A stretch of DNA of 5,406 nt from a virus (lineage: Duplodnaviria; Heunggongvirae; Uroviricota; Caudoviricetes): positions 1-5,406 of IMG/VR virus record IMGVR_UViG_3300028532_000031; one strand, given 5' to 3'. A program made the translations under genes and the position numbers. Position 1 is the first letter of the stretch. Every line of letters begins with the position of its first letter. Positions 3 to 5,406 of the stretch are shown here, piece after piece. The notes below the pieces were generated by a model. It was not told the origin of the DNA. It made no database searches and saw only the letters and a list, made by a program, of their open reading frames with translations.

Positions 3-1256
3 CCGGTACTGACGCGCCAGCTACTGATAGCAGGCGGTGCGTTGCTGGCAATGACTGCAACGATTGGCTCGTTGTCGCTGGTTATTGGGGTGCTTTACGG
101 GAAGCTGGCCACCCTGCGTCTTGGTTTTGACATTCTTACCCGGTCAATGAATGTCGTCAGGGTGTTGCCTGCGCTGTGGGGAATGCTGACGGGTTCCGTT
201 TCTTTACTGGGAGGCGCTATCGGGGCGCTGTTCAGTCCGGTTGGTCTTATCGTGGCTGCGCTTGCCGGAGCTGCTGTTCTTATCTGGAAATACTGGGATC
301 CCATCAGGGCATTTTTTGCCGGGGTGTTCAGCGGGATTATGGAAAGGCTGACCCCGTTGCGCGAAACCTTTGAACGGTTTGGTCCTGTTTTTGACGCAAT
401 CGGAAGCGGGATCAGCCAGGTGTTTAACTGGTTTAAATCGCTGCTGTCACCGATGGAGTCCAGCAAGGAAACGCTGGATAAATGTACCAGTGCTGGCGAG
501 ATATTCGGTAACGTTCTTGGTGGCGCGCTACAGCTTGTTCTGACGCCTGCAAAAATGTTGCTGGATACGCTGGCGTGGATACTTGAAAAACTCGGTGTGC
601 TTCCGGATGAAGCGGAAAGGGCGAGAAAGAAAATCGAAGACGCACAGCGTGCGGCCATTCTTCAGGACAAGGTTGCCTTGCTTCAGGGGGACCTGGCGAA
701 AATCAATCCGCCGAAGCCTGTGGAAAATAGCAATGGCACCGGAGGTGATAAACCCAAAGACAATAAACCGCTCACAGACAGCAATACCGGTACGCTGCGC
801 AGACTCAGCAAAATTGCTGATAACACAGGTAAGCTGGTTGATGAGACGAAAAAACGCATTGGCCCCGGCGATATTGTCTTTAAGAACCTGCCCCGCGCAC
901 TTGCTGTTCGTGGGGAGTGGCAGGAGCGGAAGATTGCGCAGGTCAGTAAGCCTGCCCCCGCAATTAATATCACACCCGTGGTCCCGGCTCCGCTGCCTCC
1001 GGCGCTGGTCCCTGTTGTTGCGGCCAGCTCCCGCCCGGTGGCGGAGGCCATACGATCGCCAGTGGCATCAGTTCCTGCAACTTCCCGTAACCGGGAGCCT
1101 GTTGCCTCCGGATTTGGCGGTGAAATTCATGTTCATCTGCATAACGTTGTTACGCAGAATCCCCGCGAACTGGCGAAACTGGTCGGTGAAATGGTCAGGG
1201 CAGAGGTGGAACGGCGCGCCCGTGCCGGACGTGGCAGTTTTTACGATAAAGATTGA
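3..1256 (+). CDS. Phage tail tape measure protein, C-terminal portion (5' end truncated by window edge)
   Basis: The reading frame is open from nt 3 with no in-frame stop before the window start, so the gene begins upstream; the ORF-track TTG at 42 is not a real start. Translation has long hydrophobic Gly/Ala/Leu segments (e.g. GAIGALFSPVGLIVAALAGAAVLIWKYW) and a Pro/Ala/Val-rich low-complexity stretch, as in tape measure proteins. It sits immediately upstream of a gpU-like gene, matching the P2 T-U order. Stop TGA at 1254-1256. Confidence 0.55.
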   Translation, partial: PVLTRQLLIAGGALLAMTATIGSLSLVIGVLYGKLATLRLGFDILTRSMNVVRVLPALWGMLTGSVSLLGGAIGALFSPVGLIVAALAGAAVLIWKYWDPIRAFFAGVFSGIMERLTPLRETFERFGPVFDAIGSGISQVFNWFKSLLSPMESSKETLDKCTSAGEIFGNVLGGALQLVLTPAKMLLDTLAWILEKLGVLPDEAERARKKIEDAQRAAILQDKVALLQGDLAKINPPKPVENSNGTGGDKPKDNKPLTDSNTGTLRRLSKIADNTGKLVDETKKRIGPGDIVFKNLPRALAVRGEWQERKIAQVSKPAPAINITPVVPAPLPPALVPVVAASSRPVAEAIRSPVASVPATSRNREPVASGFGGEIHVHLHNVVTQNPRELAKLVGEMVRAEVERRARAGRGSFYDKD

Positions 1257-1262
1257 GGAGTC

Positions 1263-1757
1263 ATGATCATGATGATGATCTACGGCATGTTTGTTTTTGA
1301 GCTGCGCACACTGCCGCATCAGCAGTTACAGCAAAACAAAAGCTGGCGGCATGTGAAAAATGAGCGCGTAAACCGCTCAGCAAGCTGGCAGTATATCGGT
1401 GCAGGTGATGATCGCATCGTGCTTTCTGGCGTGCTTTATCCTGAAATTACAGGTGGCGAAGTGTCGCTTTCGCTGCTGACCACGCAGGCATATACAGGAC
1501 GCCCCTGGCCTCTGATTGATGGTGTCGGGCAGATTTACGGCATGTATGTACTGACTGAAACGAATACGACCCGCTCCGAGTTTGATCGCTACGGTAAGGC
1601 GAAAAAGATAGAATTTTCACTGACTCTTGAACGCTGTGATGAGGATTTGCGGGAGCGCCTGCAATCCTCATCGTTCAGTGATATGCTGTCCGGCTTCAAA
1701 GATAAGGTCACATCATCCCTTAACAGCGCGGCCAGCTCCGTTAAAGGGCTGTTTTGA
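1263..1757 (+). CDS. P2 gpU-like phage tail protein
   Basis: 164-aa ORF with the pattern FVFELRTLPHQ...GAGDDRIVLSGVLYPEITGG...GRPWPLIDGVGQIYGMYVL, which I recognise as the phage P2 tail protein U family. GAGGAG at 1255-1260 is only 2 nt from the ATG at 1263, so the true start is more likely the ATG at 1269 or 1272. Stop TGA at 1755-1757. Confidence 0.7.
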   Translation: MIMMMIYGMFVFELRTLPHQQLQQNKSWRHVKNERVNRSASWQYIGAGDDRIVLSGVLYPEITGGEVSLSLLTTQAYTGRPWPLIDGVGQIYGMYVLTETNTTRSEFDRYGKAKKIEFSLTLERCDEDLRERLQSSSFSDMLSGFKDKVTSSLNSAASSVKGLF

Positions 1758-1764
1758 TTAACGC

Positions 1765-1794
1765 AAAACCGCTAATGGTCAGATTAGCGGTTTT
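1765..1794. terminator. Bidirectional intrinsic terminator hairpin between convergent gpU and invertase genes
   Basis: Perfect 12-bp inverted repeat AAAACCGCTAAT (1765-1776) / ATTAGCGGTTTT (1783-1794) around a 6-nt loop GGTCAG. On the plus strand it is followed by TTTTCATTTT; the A-run in the left arm gives a U-run for the minus-strand transcript. It starts 8 nt after the gpU stop and overlaps the invertase stop codon (1784-1786). Confidence 0.5.
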
Positions 1795-2383
1795 CATTTT
1801 CCTGAGTCTGCCTGGTTGTTTCTTCAGCCTGTATATCGCCTACAGGGTGATAACGATAAATCGTCGATATGCCGATGTCGTAAATGATCGCCAGTTGTTT
1901 CCTGTCATGACCGTTTTTAATCAGCCTCGCTATTTGCTCGTGTTGTTCTTTTGTCAACTTCGGGCGACGTCCGCCAATGCGTCCTTGTGCGCGTGCTGCT
2001 GCCAGTCCGGCCAGTGTACGCTCTACAATTAATTCACGTTCCATTTCGGCTAAAGCCCCCATGACGTGAAAAAAGAAACGCCCCATGGGTGTTGATGTGT
2101 CAATGCTGTCCGTCAGACTACGGAAATTAACACCTTTTTCCCGCAATTCCTCAATAAGCGTAATCAGGTGTTTCATACTTCTGCCCAGTCTGTCCAGCTT
2201 CCAGACAACCAGCGTATCTCCTTCTGATAGCGTTCTGAGCAGTTTTTTCAATCCCGGTCTGGCTGATTTCGTTCCGCTGATTTTATCTTCAAAAATCAGT
2301 TCACATCCTGCGCAGTTCAGTGCATTGCGTTGTAAATCCGTGTTCTGGTCATTTGTTGACACACGAATATAGCCAATTTGCAT
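1784..2383 (-). CDS. Serine DNA invertase (Hin/Gin/Cin/Pin family site-specific recombinase)
   Basis: 199-aa product starting MQIGYIRVSTNDQNTDLQRN, with the catalytic Ser in the RVSTNDQ motif, ...VVWKLDRLGRSMKHL..., ...SPMGRFFFHVMGALAEMERELI..., and a C-terminal helix-turn-helix (QLAIIYDIGISTIYRYHP). It is near-identical in pattern to Gin/Hin as I recall them. Start chosen at the ATG at 2383-2381 because AGAGGA (minus strand, 2397-2392) lies 8 nt upstream; the ORF-track extension to 2593 has no such support. Confidence 0.92.
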   Translation of the reverse strand: MQIGYIRVSTNDQNTDLQRNALNCAGCELIFEDKISGTKSARPGLKKLLRTLSEGDTLVVWKLDRLGRSMKHLITLIEELREKGVNFRSLTDSIDTSTPMGRFFFHVMGALAEMERELIVERTLAGLAAARAQGRIGGRRPKLTKEQHEQIARLIKNGHDRKQLAIIYDIGISTIYRYHPVGDIQAEETTRQTQENENR

Positions 2384-2397
2384 AAAAAACATCCTCT

Positions 2398-2961
2398 TTG
2401 TTTCGTGAAAAATACATAGTTGGTATAGGTAGGGATAAAAACGAAAACGTTGGTTTGGGGGAAGGCTCTGCGCTGCCCGTTGGAGTGCCCGTTCCATGGC
2501 CCTCAGCCACGCCGCCAACGGGGTGGCTGAAATGTAACGGCGCAGCATTTTCTTCTGAAGAATACCCGGAATTGGCAAAGGCTTACCCGACAAATAAATT
2601 GCCTGATTTACGCGGTGAATTTATCCGTGGCTGGGATGATGGGCGTGGTGTGGATGCGGGGAGAGCAATATTATCAGCTCAGGGCGATGCCATACGTAAT
2701 ATCTATGGTGAGTTCAGAACTGTAAATACTGAAAATTATTCAATATGGGAAGGAATGAGCACGTTTAAGGGGGCTGTGGTGCCTTTAAATCCCTCCACAA
2801 ACAATAGTTATTTCTCCTTAGTCAAAAGTATGGTGACTGAAAGGGCAGACGGCGCTGTTTACCCAAAAGTGATCGGCCTTGATGCTTCAAAAATTGTTCC
2901 AACTGCAAATGAAAATCGCCCACGCAACATTGCGTTTAATTACATCGTAAGGGCGGCATAA
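2398..2961 (+). CDS. Tail-fibre C-terminal cassette 1 (startless, promoterless alternative receptor-binding segment)
   Basis: No ATG or RBS; the ORF-track start is a TTG. Encodes a phage tail-collar-like region (PVGVPVPWPSATPPTGWLKCNGAAFSSEEYPELAKAYPTNKLPDLRGEFIRGWDDGRGVD), then a unique central segment, then the shared C-terminal end ENRPRNIAFNYIVRAA. The NIAFNYIVR-type end is one I recall from enterobacterial side tail fibre proteins. Confidence 0.75.
   Translation: MFREKYIVGIGRDKNENVGLGEGSALPVGVPVPWPSATPPTGWLKCNGAAFSSEEYPELAKAYPTNKLPDLRGEFIRGWDDGRGVDAGRAILSAQGDAIRNIYGEFRTVNTENYSIWEGMSTFKGAVVPLNPSTNNSYFSLVKSMVTERADGAVYPKVIGLDASKIVPTANENRPRNIAFNYIVRAA
2413..2440 (-). promoter_or_regulatory. 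Candidate sigma70 promoter for the invertase gene, adjacent to putative crossover site 1
   Basis: On the minus strand: -35-like TTTTAT (plus coordinates 2440-2435), 16-nt spacer, -10-like TATGTA (2418-2413), about 30 nt upstream of the invertase ATG. Both hexamers are weak matches; this is a by-eye call only. Confidence 0.25.
2444..2465 (+). other. Putative invertase crossover site (copy 1, invertase-proximal) containing the 22-bp motif AAAACGTTGGTTTGGGGGAAGG
   Basis: The motif recurs at the 5' boundary of every plus-strand cassette. Its right half GGTTTGGGGGAA is the reverse complement of TTCCCCCAAACC, which resembles the Hin/Gin half-site consensus TTnTCnAAAACC. The inner part AAAAC-G-TT-GGTTT is partly palindromic. 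Copy 1 carries an extra in-frame AAAACG immediately 5' of the motif. Confidence 0.45.
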
Positions 2962-2982
2962 AAACGTTGGTTTGGGGGAAGG
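2961..2982 (+). other. Putative invertase crossover site (copy 2), AAAACGTTGGTTTGGGGGAAGG
   Basis: Exact repeat of the 22-bp motif, 517 bp after copy 1. It overlaps the stop codon of cassette 1 and begins the cassette 2 reading frame. Confidence 0.45.
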
Positions 2983-3433
2983 CTCTGCGCTGCCCGTTGG
3001 TGTACCTGTTCCATGGCCCTCAGCCACACCGCCAACGGGGTGGCTAAAATGTAACGGAGCAGCATTTTCTTCTGAAAAATACCCCAAACTGGCAAAGGCT
3101 TACCCAACGTTAAAATTACCGGATTTACGGGGTGAGTTTATCCGTGGCTGGGATGACGGACGTGGTGTGGATGCCGGGCGACAATTATTATCTTCACAGG
3201 GGGATGCAATAAGAAATATTGAGGGGTTCGCAGATGGCGGGATCGGCATGTCTTTTGATGCAATCAGAGGGGCTTTTTACGATGCAGGAACACGATCTGC
3301 GAGAATGCCGAATAACACAACTGATATAGGCAAAACCGATGACCTTGGATTCGACGCCTCTCGTGTCGTGCCAACAGCTAATGAAAACCGTCCTCGTAAT
3401 ATTGCCTTTAATTATATCGTAAGGGCGGCATAA
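2972..3433 (+). CDS. Tail-fibre C-terminal cassette 2 (startless)
   Basis: Same architecture as cassette 1: conserved collar-like 5' part, divergent middle (…GFADGGIGMSFDAIRGAFYDAGTRSARMPNNTTDIGKTDDLGFDASR…), conserved end ENRPRNIAFNYIVRAA. Begins in frame within motif copy 2; the ORF-track start is a TTG. Confidence 0.75.
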   Translation: MGEGSALPVGVPVPWPSATPPTGWLKCNGAAFSSEKYPKLAKAYPTLKLPDLRGEFIRGWDDGRGVDAGRQLLSSQGDAIRNIEGFADGGIGMSFDAIRGAFYDAGTRSARMPNNTTDIGKTDDLGFDASRVVPTANENRPRNIAFNYIVRAA

Positions 3434-3454
3434 AAACGTTGGTTTAGGGGAAGG
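3433..3454 (+). other. Putative invertase crossover site (copy 3), AAAACGTTGGTTTAGGGGAAGG (one substitution)
   Basis: One-mismatch copy of the motif, 472 bp after copy 2, overlapping the stop codon of cassette 2 at the boundary with cassette 3. Confidence 0.4.
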
Positions 3455-3473
3455 TTCGGCGCTGCCTGTTGGT

Positions 3474-3911
3474 GTGGCCGTTCCATGGCCCTCAGCCACG
3501 CTGCCAGCGGGGTGGTTGAAATGTAACGGCGCAGCATTTTCTTCTGAAATGTACCCCAATCTGGCAAAGGCCTACCCCACCAATAAATTACCGGATTTAC
3601 GGGGCGAATTTATTCGCGGCTGGGATGACGGACGGGGCGTTGATAATGGGCGCAACCTACTGTCTGCACAGTCTGACGCTATTCAGAATATAGTTGGCAC
3701 TTTTGGGCGTACTCAGCTTTTTAAAGATGCGTTTAATTCAGGACCATTTAGTCAAACTGACTCTATATTATCAGTAGGCTTACAACCAACTGAGATCATT
3801 GAAGGATATGGTGCTTCTGTATGGACATTCGACGCCTCTCGCTCAGTTCGCACAGCATCTGAAACACGCCCCCATAACATTGCGTTTAATTACATCGTAA
3901 GGGCAGCATGA
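3474..3911 (+). CDS. Tail-fibre C-terminal cassette 3 (startless)
   Basis: Same architecture; divergent middle (…GTFGRTQLFKDAFNSGPFSQTDSILSVGLQPTEIIEGYGASVWTFDASR…); ends ETRPHNIAFNYIVRAA. The in-frame reading extends back through motif copy 3 (KNVGLGEGSALPVGV…); the ORF-track start is a GTG. Confidence 0.75.
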   Translation: MAVPWPSATLPAGWLKCNGAAFSSEMYPNLAKAYPTNKLPDLRGEFIRGWDDGRGVDNGRNLLSAQSDAIQNIVGTFGRTQLFKDAFNSGPFSQTDSILSVGLQPTEIIEGYGASVWTFDASRSVRTASETRPHNIAFNYIVRAA

Positions 3912-3932
3912 AAACGTTGGTTTGGGGGAAGG
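3911..3932 (+). other. Putative invertase crossover site (copy 4), AAAACGTTGGTTTGGGGGAAGG
   Basis: Exact copy of the motif, 478 bp after copy 3, overlapping the TGA stop of cassette 3 at the boundary with cassette 4. Confidence 0.45.
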
Positions 3933-4380
3933 CTCTGCGCTGCCCGTTGGTGTACCTGTTCCATGGCCCTTAGAAACACCGCCAACGGGGTGGCTGAAAT
4001 GTAACGGCGCAGCATTTTCTTCTGAAATGTATCCCAGACTGGCAAAGGCCTACCCCACCAATAAATTACCGGATTTACGGGGTGAATTTATTCGCGGCTG
4101 GGATGATGGGCGCGGGGTGGATGCCGGAAGGGGCATCTTAAGCATGCAGGGGTGGTTAACAGGAAGTCATTATCATAATATTCGGTCATGGGATGCGTGG
4201 GATAACACGGTACTGGTGCCAAATGACAAAGGAGGGGATAGTCTGTTGTCGACAGATAACGCCGTCCGGCAAGGTGCAATTAACGGTAGATTTACCAGTC
4301 AATACAGAACGGAATCCTCAGAGGGGAATGAAACCCGCCCACGCAATATTGCCTTCAATTATATTGTGAGAACCGCATAA
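3922..4380 (+). CDS. Tail-fibre C-terminal cassette 4 (startless), translationally coupled to the tail fibre assembly gene
   Basis: Same architecture; divergent aromatic/His-rich middle (…GWLTGSHYHNIRSWDAWDNTVLVPNDKGGDSLLSTDNAVRQGAINGRFTSQYR…); ends ETRPRNIAFNYIVRTA. Its TAA stop (4378-4380) overlaps the ATG of the next gene (TAATG). Confidence 0.75.
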   Translation: MGEGSALPVGVPVPWPLETPPTGWLKCNGAAFSSEMYPRLAKAYPTNKLPDLRGEFIRGWDDGRGVDAGRGILSMQGWLTGSHYHNIRSWDAWDNTVLVPNDKGGDSLLSTDNAVRQGAINGRFTSQYRTESSEGNETRPRNIAFNYIVRTA

Positions 4381-4991
4381 TGAATAACGCGATATTAAAT
4401 GATGACCTTATTGCCGTACAGGCAGGAAACATCGTCGTTTATAACTATGATGGTGAGACACGGGAATATATTTCCGAATCAACTGAATATCTTGCTGCGG
4501 GTGTCGGTATTCCGGCAAATTCCTGTTTAGATGCCCCGGGCGCACATAAAGCGGGCTATGCTATCCGCCGTTCGGAGAATTTAAATTCATGGGAGTATAC
4601 GCCAGATCATCGTGGTGAAACCGTCTATAGCACTGATACGGGAAACACCGAAGAAATCACGACGCTGGGTGACTACCCGAAAAATACAACCACTATCGCC
4701 CCGTTAACACCATACGATAAATGGGATGGTGAAAAATGGGTGACGGATACCGAGGCACAGCATAGCGCCGCAGTAGAAGCGGCAGAAACACAGCGCCAGT
4801 CGCTGATTGATACTGCAATGGCTTCCATTAGTCTGATTCAGTTGAAGTTGCAGGCCGGGCGGAAGTTGACGCAGGCAGAAACCACCCGGCTTAACGCCGT
4901 GCTGGATTATATAGACGCACTGAACGCAATGGATATAAACATGGCATCAGATATCAACTGGCCGGAAATACCACTGGCAGCAGCCAGTTGA
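4380..4991 (+). CDS. Tail fibre assembly protein (Tfa chaperone; P2 gpG / Mu U-like role)
   Basis: 203-aa ORF directly downstream of and overlapping a tail-fibre cassette, the classic fibre-chaperone position. The C-terminus has the Tfa-like …DINWPEIP… pattern. Family assignment is from position and recalled motif, not a search. Confidence 0.65.
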   Translation: MNNAILNDDLIAVQAGNIVVYNYDGETREYISESTEYLAAGVGIPANSCLDAPGAHKAGYAIRRSENLNSWEYTPDHRGETVYSTDTGNTEEITTLGDYPKNTTTIAPLTPYDKWDGEKWVTDTEAQHSAAVEAAETQRQSLIDTAMASISLIQLKLQAGRKLTQAETTRLNAVLDYIDALNAMDINMASDINWPEIPLAAAS

Positions 4992-4997
4992 ATATAA

Positions 4998-5406
4998 CTA
5001 AGCCGCCCTCACGATATAGTTAAATGCAATATTGCGGGGGCGGGTTTCACTACCACCTGTGTTACCAATACTTCCTCGTGAATGAAGCGTTGGTGATGGA
5101 ATCAAACTCCCTCCTGTATTTGTGGCATCAAGCCCCCTGCCTTGTGTATATGTTTTTTTGAAAATCGTGGCCAACTCCCATTCATCCTTTGTGTCATATC
5201 CATCGTTAGCTACAACAATATGGCGGTGTTTTTCCAACATCCCGGTTTGAATGCTCAATAAAGCGCGTGCTGCATCAATTCCTCGCCCATCATCCCAGCC
5301 ACGAATAAATTCACCCCGTAAATCCGGTAATTTATTGGTGGGGTAGGCCTTTGCCAGTCTGGGATACATTTCAGAAGAAAATGCTGCGCCGTTACATTTC
5401 AGCCAC
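4998..5406 (-). CDS. Tail-fibre C-terminal cassette 5, inverted orientation; 5' end continues beyond the right window edge
   Basis: The minus-strand frame is open to the window end and reads …WLKCNGAAFSSEMYPRLAKAYPTNKLPDLRGEFIRGWDDGRGID…, then a unique middle, then SETRPRNIAFNYIVRAA with stop TAG (plus 4998-5000). The ORF-track start at M5369 is internal. The first 123 nt are the reverse complement of cassette 4 (3990-4112) with one mismatch. Confidence 0.8.
   Translation of the reverse strand, partial: WLKCNGAAFSSEMYPRLAKAYPTNKLPDLRGEFIRGWDDGRGIDAARALLSIQTGMLEKHRHIVVANDGYDTKDEWELATIFKKTYTQGRGLDATNTGGSLIPSPTLHSRGSIGNTGGSETRPRNIAFNYIVRAA

Follow-up and report, generated by a model that had tools for sequence, protein, structure and literature searches.

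A near-perfect inverted repeat in the tail-fibre switch of a P2-family Escherichia coli prophage, and its probable origin by homologous exchange between cassettes

Why should two tail-fibre cassettes lying in opposite orientations in a prophage begin with almost the same DNA, and is this shared stretch itself a site of recombination? The window (the whole stretch of 5,406 nt that was analysed) covers the tail genes of a P88-like prophage of the P2 family in E. coli, in which the first-pass annotation had pointed to a 123-bp inverted repeat with a single mismatch at 4095, cut by the window edge. Recomparison of the two arms gave 122 matches in 123 positions. The sole difference (C at 4095, T at 5301) falls in the third position of an arginine codon (CGC/CGT) and is synonymous. 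A repeat search of the window extends the pair inwards to 3990-4148 and 5248-5406 (159 nt, 91%), and the outer limit of the repeat is indeed the window edge, the right arm running to the last base.

The window holds four promoterless cassettes and an inverted fifth (Table 1), the latter available at full length in other contigs (L003-L011, L015, and L016). A scan for promoters and terminators in this sequence found promoter-like and terminator-like sites no commoner than in shuffled sequence. Each cassette starts with a conserved block that extends from the crossover site (offset 0, from which all offsets are counted) to about offset 200 and encodes NVGLGEG...WDDGRG, including the Collar domain. 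The invertase matches the Mu Gin structures 4m6f/3uj3 over residues 1-185 at E 3e-91. About 25 related loci formed the comparison set: they have a tail fibre gene H (PF12571 and PF03406, plus Collar from the fused cassette), three to six Collar cassettes in many, differing orders, one assembly gene, an invertase, gpU, and a tape measure. An exact copy of the assembly protein is present in many E. coli assemblies; a megablast of the cassette 4 region against complete E. coli genomes did not return the exact variant of this cassette (best 98.1%).

Table 1. Features of the window, with positions, strand, and the evidence on which each is placed.
Feature	Position	Strand	Evidence or remark
Tail tape measure gene, C-terminal part	42..1256	+	ORF; 935-aa homologue in related loci matches PF10145; tape measure annotation in E. 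coli genomes
P2 gpU-type tail protein gene	1263..1757	+	PF06995, E 5.5e-39
Gin/Hin/Cin/Pin/Min-type serine DNA invertase, 199 aa, start MQIGYIRV	1784..2383	-	PF00239, E 1.5e-51; PF02796, E 1.4e-12
Crossover site, cassette 1 5' end, 26 bp	2438..2463	+	Core TT 2450-2451; motif match, isomer comparison
Cassette 1, promoterless tail-fibre C-terminal cassette	2446..2961	+	ORF; Collar domain (PF07484) in homologues
Crossover site, cassette 2	2955..2980	+	Left half contains cassette 1 stop codon
Cassette 2	2963..3433	+	5' block equals that of another cassette type (c6) in relatives
Crossover site, cassette 3	3427..3452	+	Motif match
Cassette 3	3435..3911	+	ORF, cassette comparison
Crossover site, cassette 4	3905..3930	+	Core TT 3917-3918; true recombination point for left arm
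Cassette 4	3913..4380	+	Residues 13-60 = tail-collar domain, PF07484, E 1.2e-14
Repeat left arm	3990..4112	+	Within conserved 5' block 3912-4112 of cassette 4; direct comparison with reverse complement of right arm
Tail fibre assembly (chaperone) gene, single, between cassettes 4 and 5	4380..4991	+	PF02413, E 1.2e-33
Cassette 5, inverted	4998..5406	-	5' end cut by window edge at offset 78 from predicted site
Repeat right arm	5284..5406	-	Repeat search and direct comparison

Pairwise comparison of the five 5' regions over the 123 nt places cassettes 4 and 5 closest, with 1 mismatch (99.2%), against 7 between cassettes 3 and 4 (94.3%), 8 between 3 and 5 (93.5%), and 15-19 (84.6-87.8%) for any pair that includes cassette 1 or 2. 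Cassettes 1-3, which had been judged by eye more diverged from cassette 4, are so by measurement (87.0, 86.2, and 94.3% identity), nor are they as identical to cassette 5 as cassette 4 is. Given the divergence of the next-closest pair (7 mismatches expected), the Poisson probability of at most one mismatch is about 0.007, and given divergence like that of cassettes 1 and 2 (16 expected) it is about 2e-6. The identity between cassettes 4 and 5 is not explicable by constraint on the protein, because the encoded peptide is nearly unchanged across all five cassettes and the synonymous sites differ: over 40 codons, differences from cassette 4 in synonymous codon pairs amount to 11 nt in cassettes 1 and 2, 5 in cassette 3, and 1 in cassette 5. 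Synonymous sites have been homogenised between cassettes 4 and 5 only. Beyond the window's right edge, from the site to offset 77, we infer the identity of the arms from L015, which contains the full cassette 5 arm and the cassette 4 arm only from offset 64.

The crossover motif AAACG-TT-GGTTTGGGGGAAGG occurs four times in the window, always on the plus strand, and the inverted partner site that is present in all related loci is predicted for cassette 5 at about 5466-5491, beyond the window. In ten related loci, the left flanks of the same cassette vary, and everything from offset 5 onwards moves with the cassette. One cassette can be found behind three left flanks, ...GATTACC (the constant part of H), ...CGAAAACG (the invertase-proximal end), and ...GCAT[A/G]AAAACG (the end of another cassette), and the junction in all three is TT-GGTTTGGGGGAAGG. 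In the relatives, the H gene runs in frame through the site, giving products of 521-578 aa that carry PF12571, PF03406, and Collar. The site at this junction, TTCTTGATTACC-TT-GGTTTGGGGGAA, resembles hixL, and is also similar to the published e14 and Mu repeats. In the part of it that the window shows, the repeat starts 72 nt inwards from the exchange point of cassette 4, and the site of this cassette coincides with the published start of the E2348/69 inverted repeat. Judging from these flanks, the 26-bp hix/gix-like sites, and not the long repeat, are the recombination sites. We considered and rejected a further site for the invertase where the block ends on its inner side (around offset 200), because the letters at that place (GGCTGGGATGATGGGCG) do not look like the crossover motif.

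Two metagenome contigs show the module the other way round. L015 is at 100% the reverse complement of window 3976-5406 and L016 that of 4023-5406, and the remainder of each (from 2450 and from 2508, respectively) matches the window to 4112 with one mismatch; they therefore represent the flipped isomer, with the order cassette 3, cassette 5, assembly gene, cassette 4. Cassette orders also differ among the ten relatives. Hence, both orientations of the module exist, as read from related contigs rather than from the source strain. Among the contigs found by exact-protein look-up (with the assembly protein, cassette 4, and cassette 2), none has the cassette 5 arm oriented as in the window and continuing into its outer flank, and the near-identical isolate contig (L013/L014) stops at the equivalent of window 5098.

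What made the two blocks so similar? The best reading is homologous exchange of 5' blocks, most simply gene conversion, and several observations point to it. First, cassette 4 of the window bears, at offsets 42-66, the signature PWPLETPP, which is absent from cassette 4 of all ten close relatives (L003-L012), where PWPSATPP is the ordinary form, and present on eight of nine of their cassette 5 copies. Second, the window and its nearest relative, L013, differ at 2 positions in 5098 nt, 3954 and 3957, and at both the window's cassette 4 carries the cassette 5 state of the relatives. Third, the polymorphisms at offsets 96 and 183 are common to both paralogues across genomes. Fourth, in the unrelated strain L024 cassettes 4 and 5 have a different haplotype in common, with 1 mismatch. 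Fifth, the near-identical pair varies by locus, being another cassette with cassette 5 (L022), cassettes 1 and 4 (L023), or cassette 7 with an unclassified cassette (L026). Finally, the 5' block of the window's cassette 2 is identical to that of cassette 6 in L005 over offsets 5-194, where cassette 2 orthologues differ at 15-25 sites. Near-identity of cassettes 4 and 5 is not peculiar to the window genome: their distance is 1-3 nt in most close relatives and 1 nt in L024, against 7-13 nt in others.

The signature on cassette 4 could be partly an assembly chimera, since 116 identical nt separate offsets 42-66 from the sequence specific to cassette 4 or 5 (at offset 183 or beyond) and a short-read phase could be mis-joined over this distance; L015 (k = 141) links the A at offset 66 to the cassette 4-specific part. 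The first-pass annotation had suggested either recent gene conversion or that cassettes 4 and 5 were the partners most recently exchanged. The signature, the two positions that separate the window from L013, and the shared polymorphisms argue for the former. The latter does not hold as a cause: serine invertases of the Hin/Gin family carry out conservative strand exchange at a 2-bp core, and because this exchange is conservative and takes place at a TT core outside the repeat, it cannot produce the near-identity.

We consider it likely that the arms are the 5' blocks of alternative tail-fibre tips in a switch of the Min/Gin type, near-identical through homologous exchange. In this scheme 1) cassettes 4 and 5 are alternative C-terminal cassettes of the tail fibre, their 5' blocks encoding most of the tail-collar domain; 2) they lie head-outward around the single assembly gene, and the module that they bound is the innermost of those that can invert in this multi-cassette switch; 3) the adjoining serine invertase recombines the 26-bp hix/gix-like sites with which the cassettes begin at their very 5' ends; 4) a single cassette at a time is thereby joined to the invariant portion of the tail-fibre gene, found on the minus strand past the window's right edge; 5) the long repeat is coding homology just inside the sites; and 6) RecA-type exchange, most simply non-reciprocal gene conversion, would have made the 5' blocks of cassettes 4 and 5 near-perfect copies in this lineage, and the same process would shuffle 5' blocks among cassettes throughout this family of tail-fibre loci.

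The sequences show the anatomy, the point of exchange, the two orientations of the module, and the mosaic patterns. We infer that the mosaics arose from gene conversion inside the locus rather than from recombination between co-resident phages; prophages or phage-plasmids with the same cassette family (as in L026) could, by recombining in one cell, give similar mosaics without conversion within the locus. It is a more tentative suggestion, and one that we doubt more than we believe, that block exchange goes on alongside invertase flipping as a further source of diversity and switching, often enough to differ between near-clonal genomes such as the window and L013, whose two differences both fall in the cassette 4 block. 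It would give rise to new chimeras of block and tip, such as the window's cassette 2 with its cassette 6 block. Since cassettes 4 and 5 are permanently inverted and near-identical, such exchange might include inversion of their module driven by RecA and independent of the invertase.

We think it unlikely that the repeat is in itself a second, invertase-independent switch, in which RecA crossovers invert the module of cassette 4, assembly gene, and cassette 5 at a biologically relevant rate. The inverted repeat, 137 nt long or more and with a single mismatch, is longer than the minimal homology that RecA needs, making inversion through it plausible on its sequence; a crossover inside the repeat would also shift the upstream signature between cassettes, which is one reading of the window's cassette 4. 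However, no isomer examined needs such a crossover, the upstream signatures stay with their cassettes in ten relatives, and the A at offset 66 in both arms of L015 fits non-reciprocal conversion better than reciprocal exchange. Moreover, flipping of the homologous module by the invertase is already fast enough for mixed cultures.

A recent duplication, with 5' blocks that have not yet diverged and no gene conversion, is less probable again. Over offsets 67-200, cassettes 4 and 5 are near-identical in most close relatives, so a good part of the likeness seen here is inherited and not newly made. But duplication without conversion predicts equal distances within and between genomes, and cassettes 4 and 5 stood 6.2 mismatches apart within and 7.75 between genomes (permutation P = 0.015, a weak test, as the genomes are not independent), a result supportive of concerted evolution and not decisive. 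Duplication also sits badly with the separate haplotype of L024, with the segregation of offsets 96 and 183 in both paralogues, with a cassette 5-type signature on cassette 4 in the window lineage only and tract ends that differ between the window and L013, and with the different near-identical pairs of other loci.

An assembly artefact, i.e., a collapsed or chimeric repeat giving falsely identical arms, is very improbable. Mixed isomers in culture make this a hard region to assemble, the window's own edge falls 123 nt into the repeat, and related draft contigs break inside one arm (L012 at offset 66, L015 at 64, L016 at 111), which bears out the earlier warning about short-read assemblies. 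Against an artefact, L015 and L016, assembled independently, contain both arms at 100%, the C/T difference included, and the cassette 4 arm is also in the near-identical isolate assembly (L013); the repeat is therefore no one-off product of assembly. Complete genomes also share the architecture, and the repeat of L024 is roughly 196 nt long with 2 mismatches. The window edge, which may be a contig end, lies exactly 127 nt from a cassette 5-specific base (offset 204) and L015, with k = 141, ends exactly 141 nt from the same offset; L016 shows no such fit.

There is equally little chance that the invertase made or keeps the repeat identical, with cassettes 4 and 5 as its latest partners, or that the repeat is an extended functional recombination site: it does abut the crossover sites and the two cassettes are the ends of the smallest invertible module, but, besides the conservative nature of the exchange, the flank switches exactly at TT, cassette-specific markers from offset 12 onwards stay with their cassette in all isomers, cassettes 1 and 2 have equally good sites with block identity of only 86-88%, and the E2348/69 locus inverts with arms only 92% identical.

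The system is of a known kind, a DNA-flipping host-range switch, and the repeat is real but ordinary. Its value is practical rather than conceptual, and current understanding is unchanged. Short-read assemblies fragment at these loci, any one assembly represents one of many isomers, and annotation pipelines label silent cassettes as 'phage tail protein' genes. What the comparison adds is that cassettes have time and again exchanged, and made alike, the collar-domain block beside the crossover sites, so that homologous exchange, and not site-specific inversion alone, shapes the evolution of the set of receptor-binding tips. The point is relevant to host-range prediction for P2-like and P1-like phages and for the tailocins built from them.

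Among the systems that invite comparison, the R64 shufflon (Rci) also has several cassettes and gives one protein alternative C-termini by overlapping inversions, but with a tyrosine recombinase, 19-bp sfx sites, and a pilus adhesin gene; the locus of the window is not a shufflon of this type, because its recombinase is of the serine type. The G segment of Mu (Gin/gix) and the C segment of P1 (Cin/cix) have alternative tail-fibre C-termini and assembly genes on an invertible segment. The P1 C segment has inverted repeats of 0.6 kb with cix at their outer ends, and shares with the window a long repeat inside the crossover sites that encodes the common start of the variable parts. In contrast, P1 and Mu have two sites, two states, and an assembly gene for each, whereas here at least five cassettes share a single assembly gene and the repeat measures about 200 nt. 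The Min multiple-inversion system of plasmid p15B, which Sandmeier, Iida, and Arber are said to have worked out in 1990-92, reportedly has several crossover sites in the tail-fibre gene. By its description, it resembles the window in having a serine (Din-family) invertase adjoining overlapping invertible segments, and differs in replicon and phage backbone, being a P1-like plasmid and not a P2-family prophage; the same cassette family occurs on a P1-like phage-plasmid with nine cassettes (L026) and on many other E. coli plasmids.

The nearest counterpart is the 'shufflon' that a P2-like prophage of EPEC E2348/69 carries (NC_011601.1 1891695/1892127-1893703). Its module at 1892127-1893703 inverts, as sequencing and PCR have demonstrated, with four isomers confirmed by PCR, and its inverted repeats are described as 215 bp long with 92% identity (Goldberg et al. 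2014, Genome Med 6:112). These coordinates agree with the sites that we found in the homologous locus (L021, about 96% identical), which has the same invertase, module of cassette 4, assembly gene, and cassette 5, and crossover motif as the window, and likewise inverted repeats of roughly 215 bp that begin at ACCTTGGTTTGGGGGAAGG. It differs in having three cassettes instead of at least five, and 7 mismatches instead of 1 in the 123-nt stretch. Din-family systems have a Fis-dependent recombinational enhancer in cis, usually within the invertase gene, where conservation of the coding sequence would blur a signal read from sequence alone. As read from its sequence, the window combines the features of the Din family, a small serine invertase (N-terminal resolvase catalytic domain, C-terminal HTH) adjoining invertible DNA and imperfectly palindromic 26-bp sites with a 2-bp core, with that of a Min-type system, three or more crossover sites through which alternative 3' cassettes are joined to the constant 5' part of one tail-fibre gene, here serving five cassettes.

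Direct comparison of window positions 3990-4112 with the reverse complement of 5284-5406 gives 122 matches in 123 positions, the sole mismatch being a C at 4095 against a T at 5301 (CGC versus CGT, a synonymous third-position difference). The first-pass annotation had thus described this inverted repeat between the tail-fibre cassettes c4 and c5 correctly in every particular. It had also held c1-c3 to be more diverged from c4, and pairwise comparison of all five cassettes over the homologous 123 nt agrees: c4 and c5 differ by 1 mismatch, c3 differs from c4 by 7 and from c5 by 8, and pairs including c1 or c2 differ by 15-19, so that none of c1-c3 is as close to c5 as c4 is. The 40 encoded residues are nearly invariant across the five cassettes, yet nucleotide differences from c4 in synonymous codon pairs number 11 for c1 and c2, 5 for c3 and 1 for c5. 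Because the peptide is shared by all and the synonymous differences are fewest in c5, the identity of c4 and c5 is a DNA-level phenomenon, of which protein constraint is not the cause. A repeat search of the window pairs 3990-4148 with 5248-5406 (159 nt) at only 91%, and identity therefore drops inward past 4112/5284; the outer limit is simply the window edge. A second, weaker inverted repeat (4319-4379 / 4999-5059; 61 nt at 79%) spans the 3' ends of the cassettes and encodes a conserved C-terminal motif, ETRPRNIAFNYIVR, common to all cassettes.

Features of the window, with domain matches and remarks
Feature	Positions	Strand	Remarks
Tape-measure gene, end	42-1256	+	
P2 gpU	1263-1757	+	PF06995
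Serine invertase	1784-2383	-	199 aa, convergent; PF00239 + PF02796; Mu Gin structures, E 3e-91
c1-c4		+	promoterless, tightly packed ORFs, each with a phage tail-collar domain
c4 crossover site	3905-3930	+	core 72 nt upstream of 3990
Tail fibre assembly gene (tfa)	4380-4991	+	PF02413
c5	4998-5406	-	fifth collar-domain ORF, truncated by window edge

By megablast, the window falls among E. coli P2-family prophages. Phage P88 (Xuanwuvirus) shares 92% identity with it over the tape measure, gpU and invertase part, and prophages in E. coli O55:H7 CB9615, E2348/69 and others share 95-98% with the whole. In the related E. coli genomes, the tail-fibre gene, H, is located rightward on the opposite strand, as are the baseplate genes. 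A single tfa is present for five or more cassettes, and it is invariably in the direction of c4 and antisense to c5; where c5 is co-oriented with H (e.g., the related loci L005 and L007), this chaperone gene and the fibre operon converge. A scan for promoters and terminators yielded no more candidate sites than shuffled sequence did. Where the gpU and invertase genes converge, 1765-1794 forms a perfect 12-bp stem (AAAACCGCTAAT / ATTAGCGGTTTT, 6-nt loop). One side of it is A-rich and the other T-rich, and it resembles an intrinsic terminator acting in both directions.

Every cassette starts with AAACG-TT-GGTTTGGGGGAAGG (2445, 2962, 3434 and 3912 in the window, these four on the + strand). In ten close relatives (L003-L012), retrieved by exact look-up of the assembly protein, cassette order and orientation vary widely, and in each of them exactly one cassette is fused to H, with the junction motif TTACC-TT-GGTTTGGGGGAAGG. 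The left flank of c4 is the H constant part in L009 and L012, the invertase-proximal end in L007, and another cassette's end in all others. Because the left flank changes while the cassette is constant from offset 5 on (offsets being nucleotides from the crossover site), strand exchange takes place at or adjoining the TT dinucleotide of a 26-bp hix/gix-like site. Its H-junction form, TTCTTGATTACC-TT-GGTTTGGGGGAA, is nearly the same as the e14 and Mu repeats given in the supplement of Goldberg et al. 2014. For c5, the partner site is predicted to lie beyond the window, at about 5466-5491. The four in-window sites are all in direct orientation and can recombine with inverted partners only, as in the Min system. 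Cassette stop codons (GCATAA or GCATGA) fall within the next site's left half-site (2955-2961, 3427-3433, 3905-3911); every cassette end doubles as half a recombination site, in an array without spacer DNA. In L004 (9530-9545), the c4 site reads AAAAACG-T-GGTTT, one T of the core being absent relative to L005. If real, this would imply a frameshifted fusion and crippled recombination there; an assembly error could likewise account for it.

Two metagenome contigs, L015 and L016, identified through exact matches to the c2 protein, carry c4-tfa-c5 in the other orientation. L015 1-1663 equals window 2450-4112 with one mismatch, L015 1541-2971 is 100% identical to window 3976-5406 in reverse complement, and L016 has the same pattern. 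Both are the flipped isomer, c1-c2-c3-c5(+)-tfa(-)-c4(-). Because the offset-183 C/T marker remains attached to its own 3' part, the flip crossover lay upstream of it, at the crossover site or inside the repeat. A putative RecA-driven inversion via the repeat is plausible. Offset 66 is an A in both L015 arms, a state more in keeping with non-reciprocal conversion than with a reciprocal crossover. The c5 arm is complete in L015 (site to offset 200) and matches the window c4 arm except at offset 183, and the c4 arm there is visible from offset 64 only; these arms give an inverted repeat of at least 137 nt with one mismatch in the window's lineage, and the full repeat most probably measures about 200 nt, extending to the crossover sites.

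What made c4 and c5 nearly identical? They had been proposed to be the partners most recently exchanged, a reading not borne out, since sequence lying inside the sites cannot be made uniform by the invertase. The comparisons between loci favour homologous exchange instead. At offsets 42-66, c4 reads G..C...C..CC..G (PWPSATPP) in all ten close relatives and c5 reads A..T...T..AA..A (PWPLETPP) in 8 of the 9 relatives bearing it; the window c4 has the c5-type signature. The nearest relative, the isolate contig L013, departs from the window at only 2 of 5098 positions, 3954 and 3957 (6033 and 6036 in L013). They lie 3 nt apart in the c4 5' block, at offsets 42 and 45, and at each the window carries the c5 base; these are thus two near-clonal genomes with different tract ends. 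Across genomes, c4 and c5 share polymorphisms at offsets 96 and 183, and locus L024 has a c4/c5 haplotype of its own, with one mismatch each in offsets 67-200 and 5-66. In L001, L007/8, L019, L021, L022 and L026, c4 and c5 have 7-13 mismatches in the 123-nt stretch. Some loci have a different near-identical pair: another cassette and c5 in L022, c1 and c4 in L023, c7 and an unclassified cassette in L026. The c4-c5 distance is smaller within genomes (6.2) than between them (7.75; P = 0.015), weak evidence given that the genomes are related. Over offsets 5-194, the window c2 block (2962-3160) is exactly the c6 block of L005 (7627-7825), a type absent from the window; c2 orthologues (L003, L005) differ from the window at 15-25 positions in the block and at 0-1 beyond offset 204. 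Window c2 is a mosaic of a c6-type 5' block and a c2 3' part. Exchanged stretches stop where homology runs out, at about offset 195-204. Exchange of 5' blocks among cassettes is thus patchy and recurrent, and the gene conversion first suggested for c4 and c5 is supported in this broader form, given the signatures, tract ends and mosaics. Only c4 and c5 are always inverted and always about 1.2 kb apart, with no site between, so crossovers between them would be harmless inversions, not deletions; this may be why, in most loci, no other pair is as close.

Conversion-like mosaics could also come from recombination with other resident elements bearing the same cassettes. Alternatively, a short-read mis-join in a mixed-isomer culture could have set the phase of offsets 42-66 relative to 183 onward, across 116 identical nt, but L015, a k = 141 contig, joins the A at offset 66 to the c4-specific part. 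All this evidence comes from the comparison of assembled sequences, not from read-level observation. The caution that the repeat would disturb short-read assembly was justified: three related draft contigs stop within one arm (L012 at c5 offset 66, L015 at c4 offset 64, L016 at c4 offset 111). The window stops at c5 offset 78, and its edge may be a contig end of the same kind. The L013/L014 contig (GCA_032664485.1 ABNUCR010000001.1) ends at the equivalent of window 5098, in the unique part of c5, not in a repeat.

The repeat is real and belongs to a type of tail-fibre inversion switch that is already known and documented by experiment; the 215-bp inverted repeats of a homologue are published. 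By sequencing and PCR, Goldberg et al. 2014 (PMC4272514) described a "shufflon" in a P2-like prophage of E2348/69, with three partially homologous inverted repeats, four coexisting isomers and three alternative C-termini. Their Table S1 gives its coordinates (NC_011601.1 1892127-1893703 and 1891695-1893703) and repeats of 215 bp each with 92% homology, beginning ACCTTGGTTTGGGGGAAGG; the small inversion varied strongly between colonies (49 +/- 37% forward). In L021, the window's homologue in E2348/69, the c4, c5 and c6 sites fall at these same coordinates, and the small inversion is exactly the c4-tfa-c5 module. Nine cassettes of the same family adjoin a cin/pin-type gene in a P1-like phage-plasmid, L026, and there are many further plasmid matches. 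L026 is the mcr-carrying Klebsiella pneumoniae plasmid pMCR_SCKP-LL83 (MF510496.1 56286-68316); its cassette types include c2, c3, c4, c5, c6 and c7, and its assembly gene is the same as the window's. Because L026 carries the same cassette family and assembly gene, receptor-binding tips are common to P2-like prophages and P1-like plasmids across different genera, and the cassette family on such phage-plasmids (cf. pJIE250-3) ties the window's locus to the Min system of p15B.
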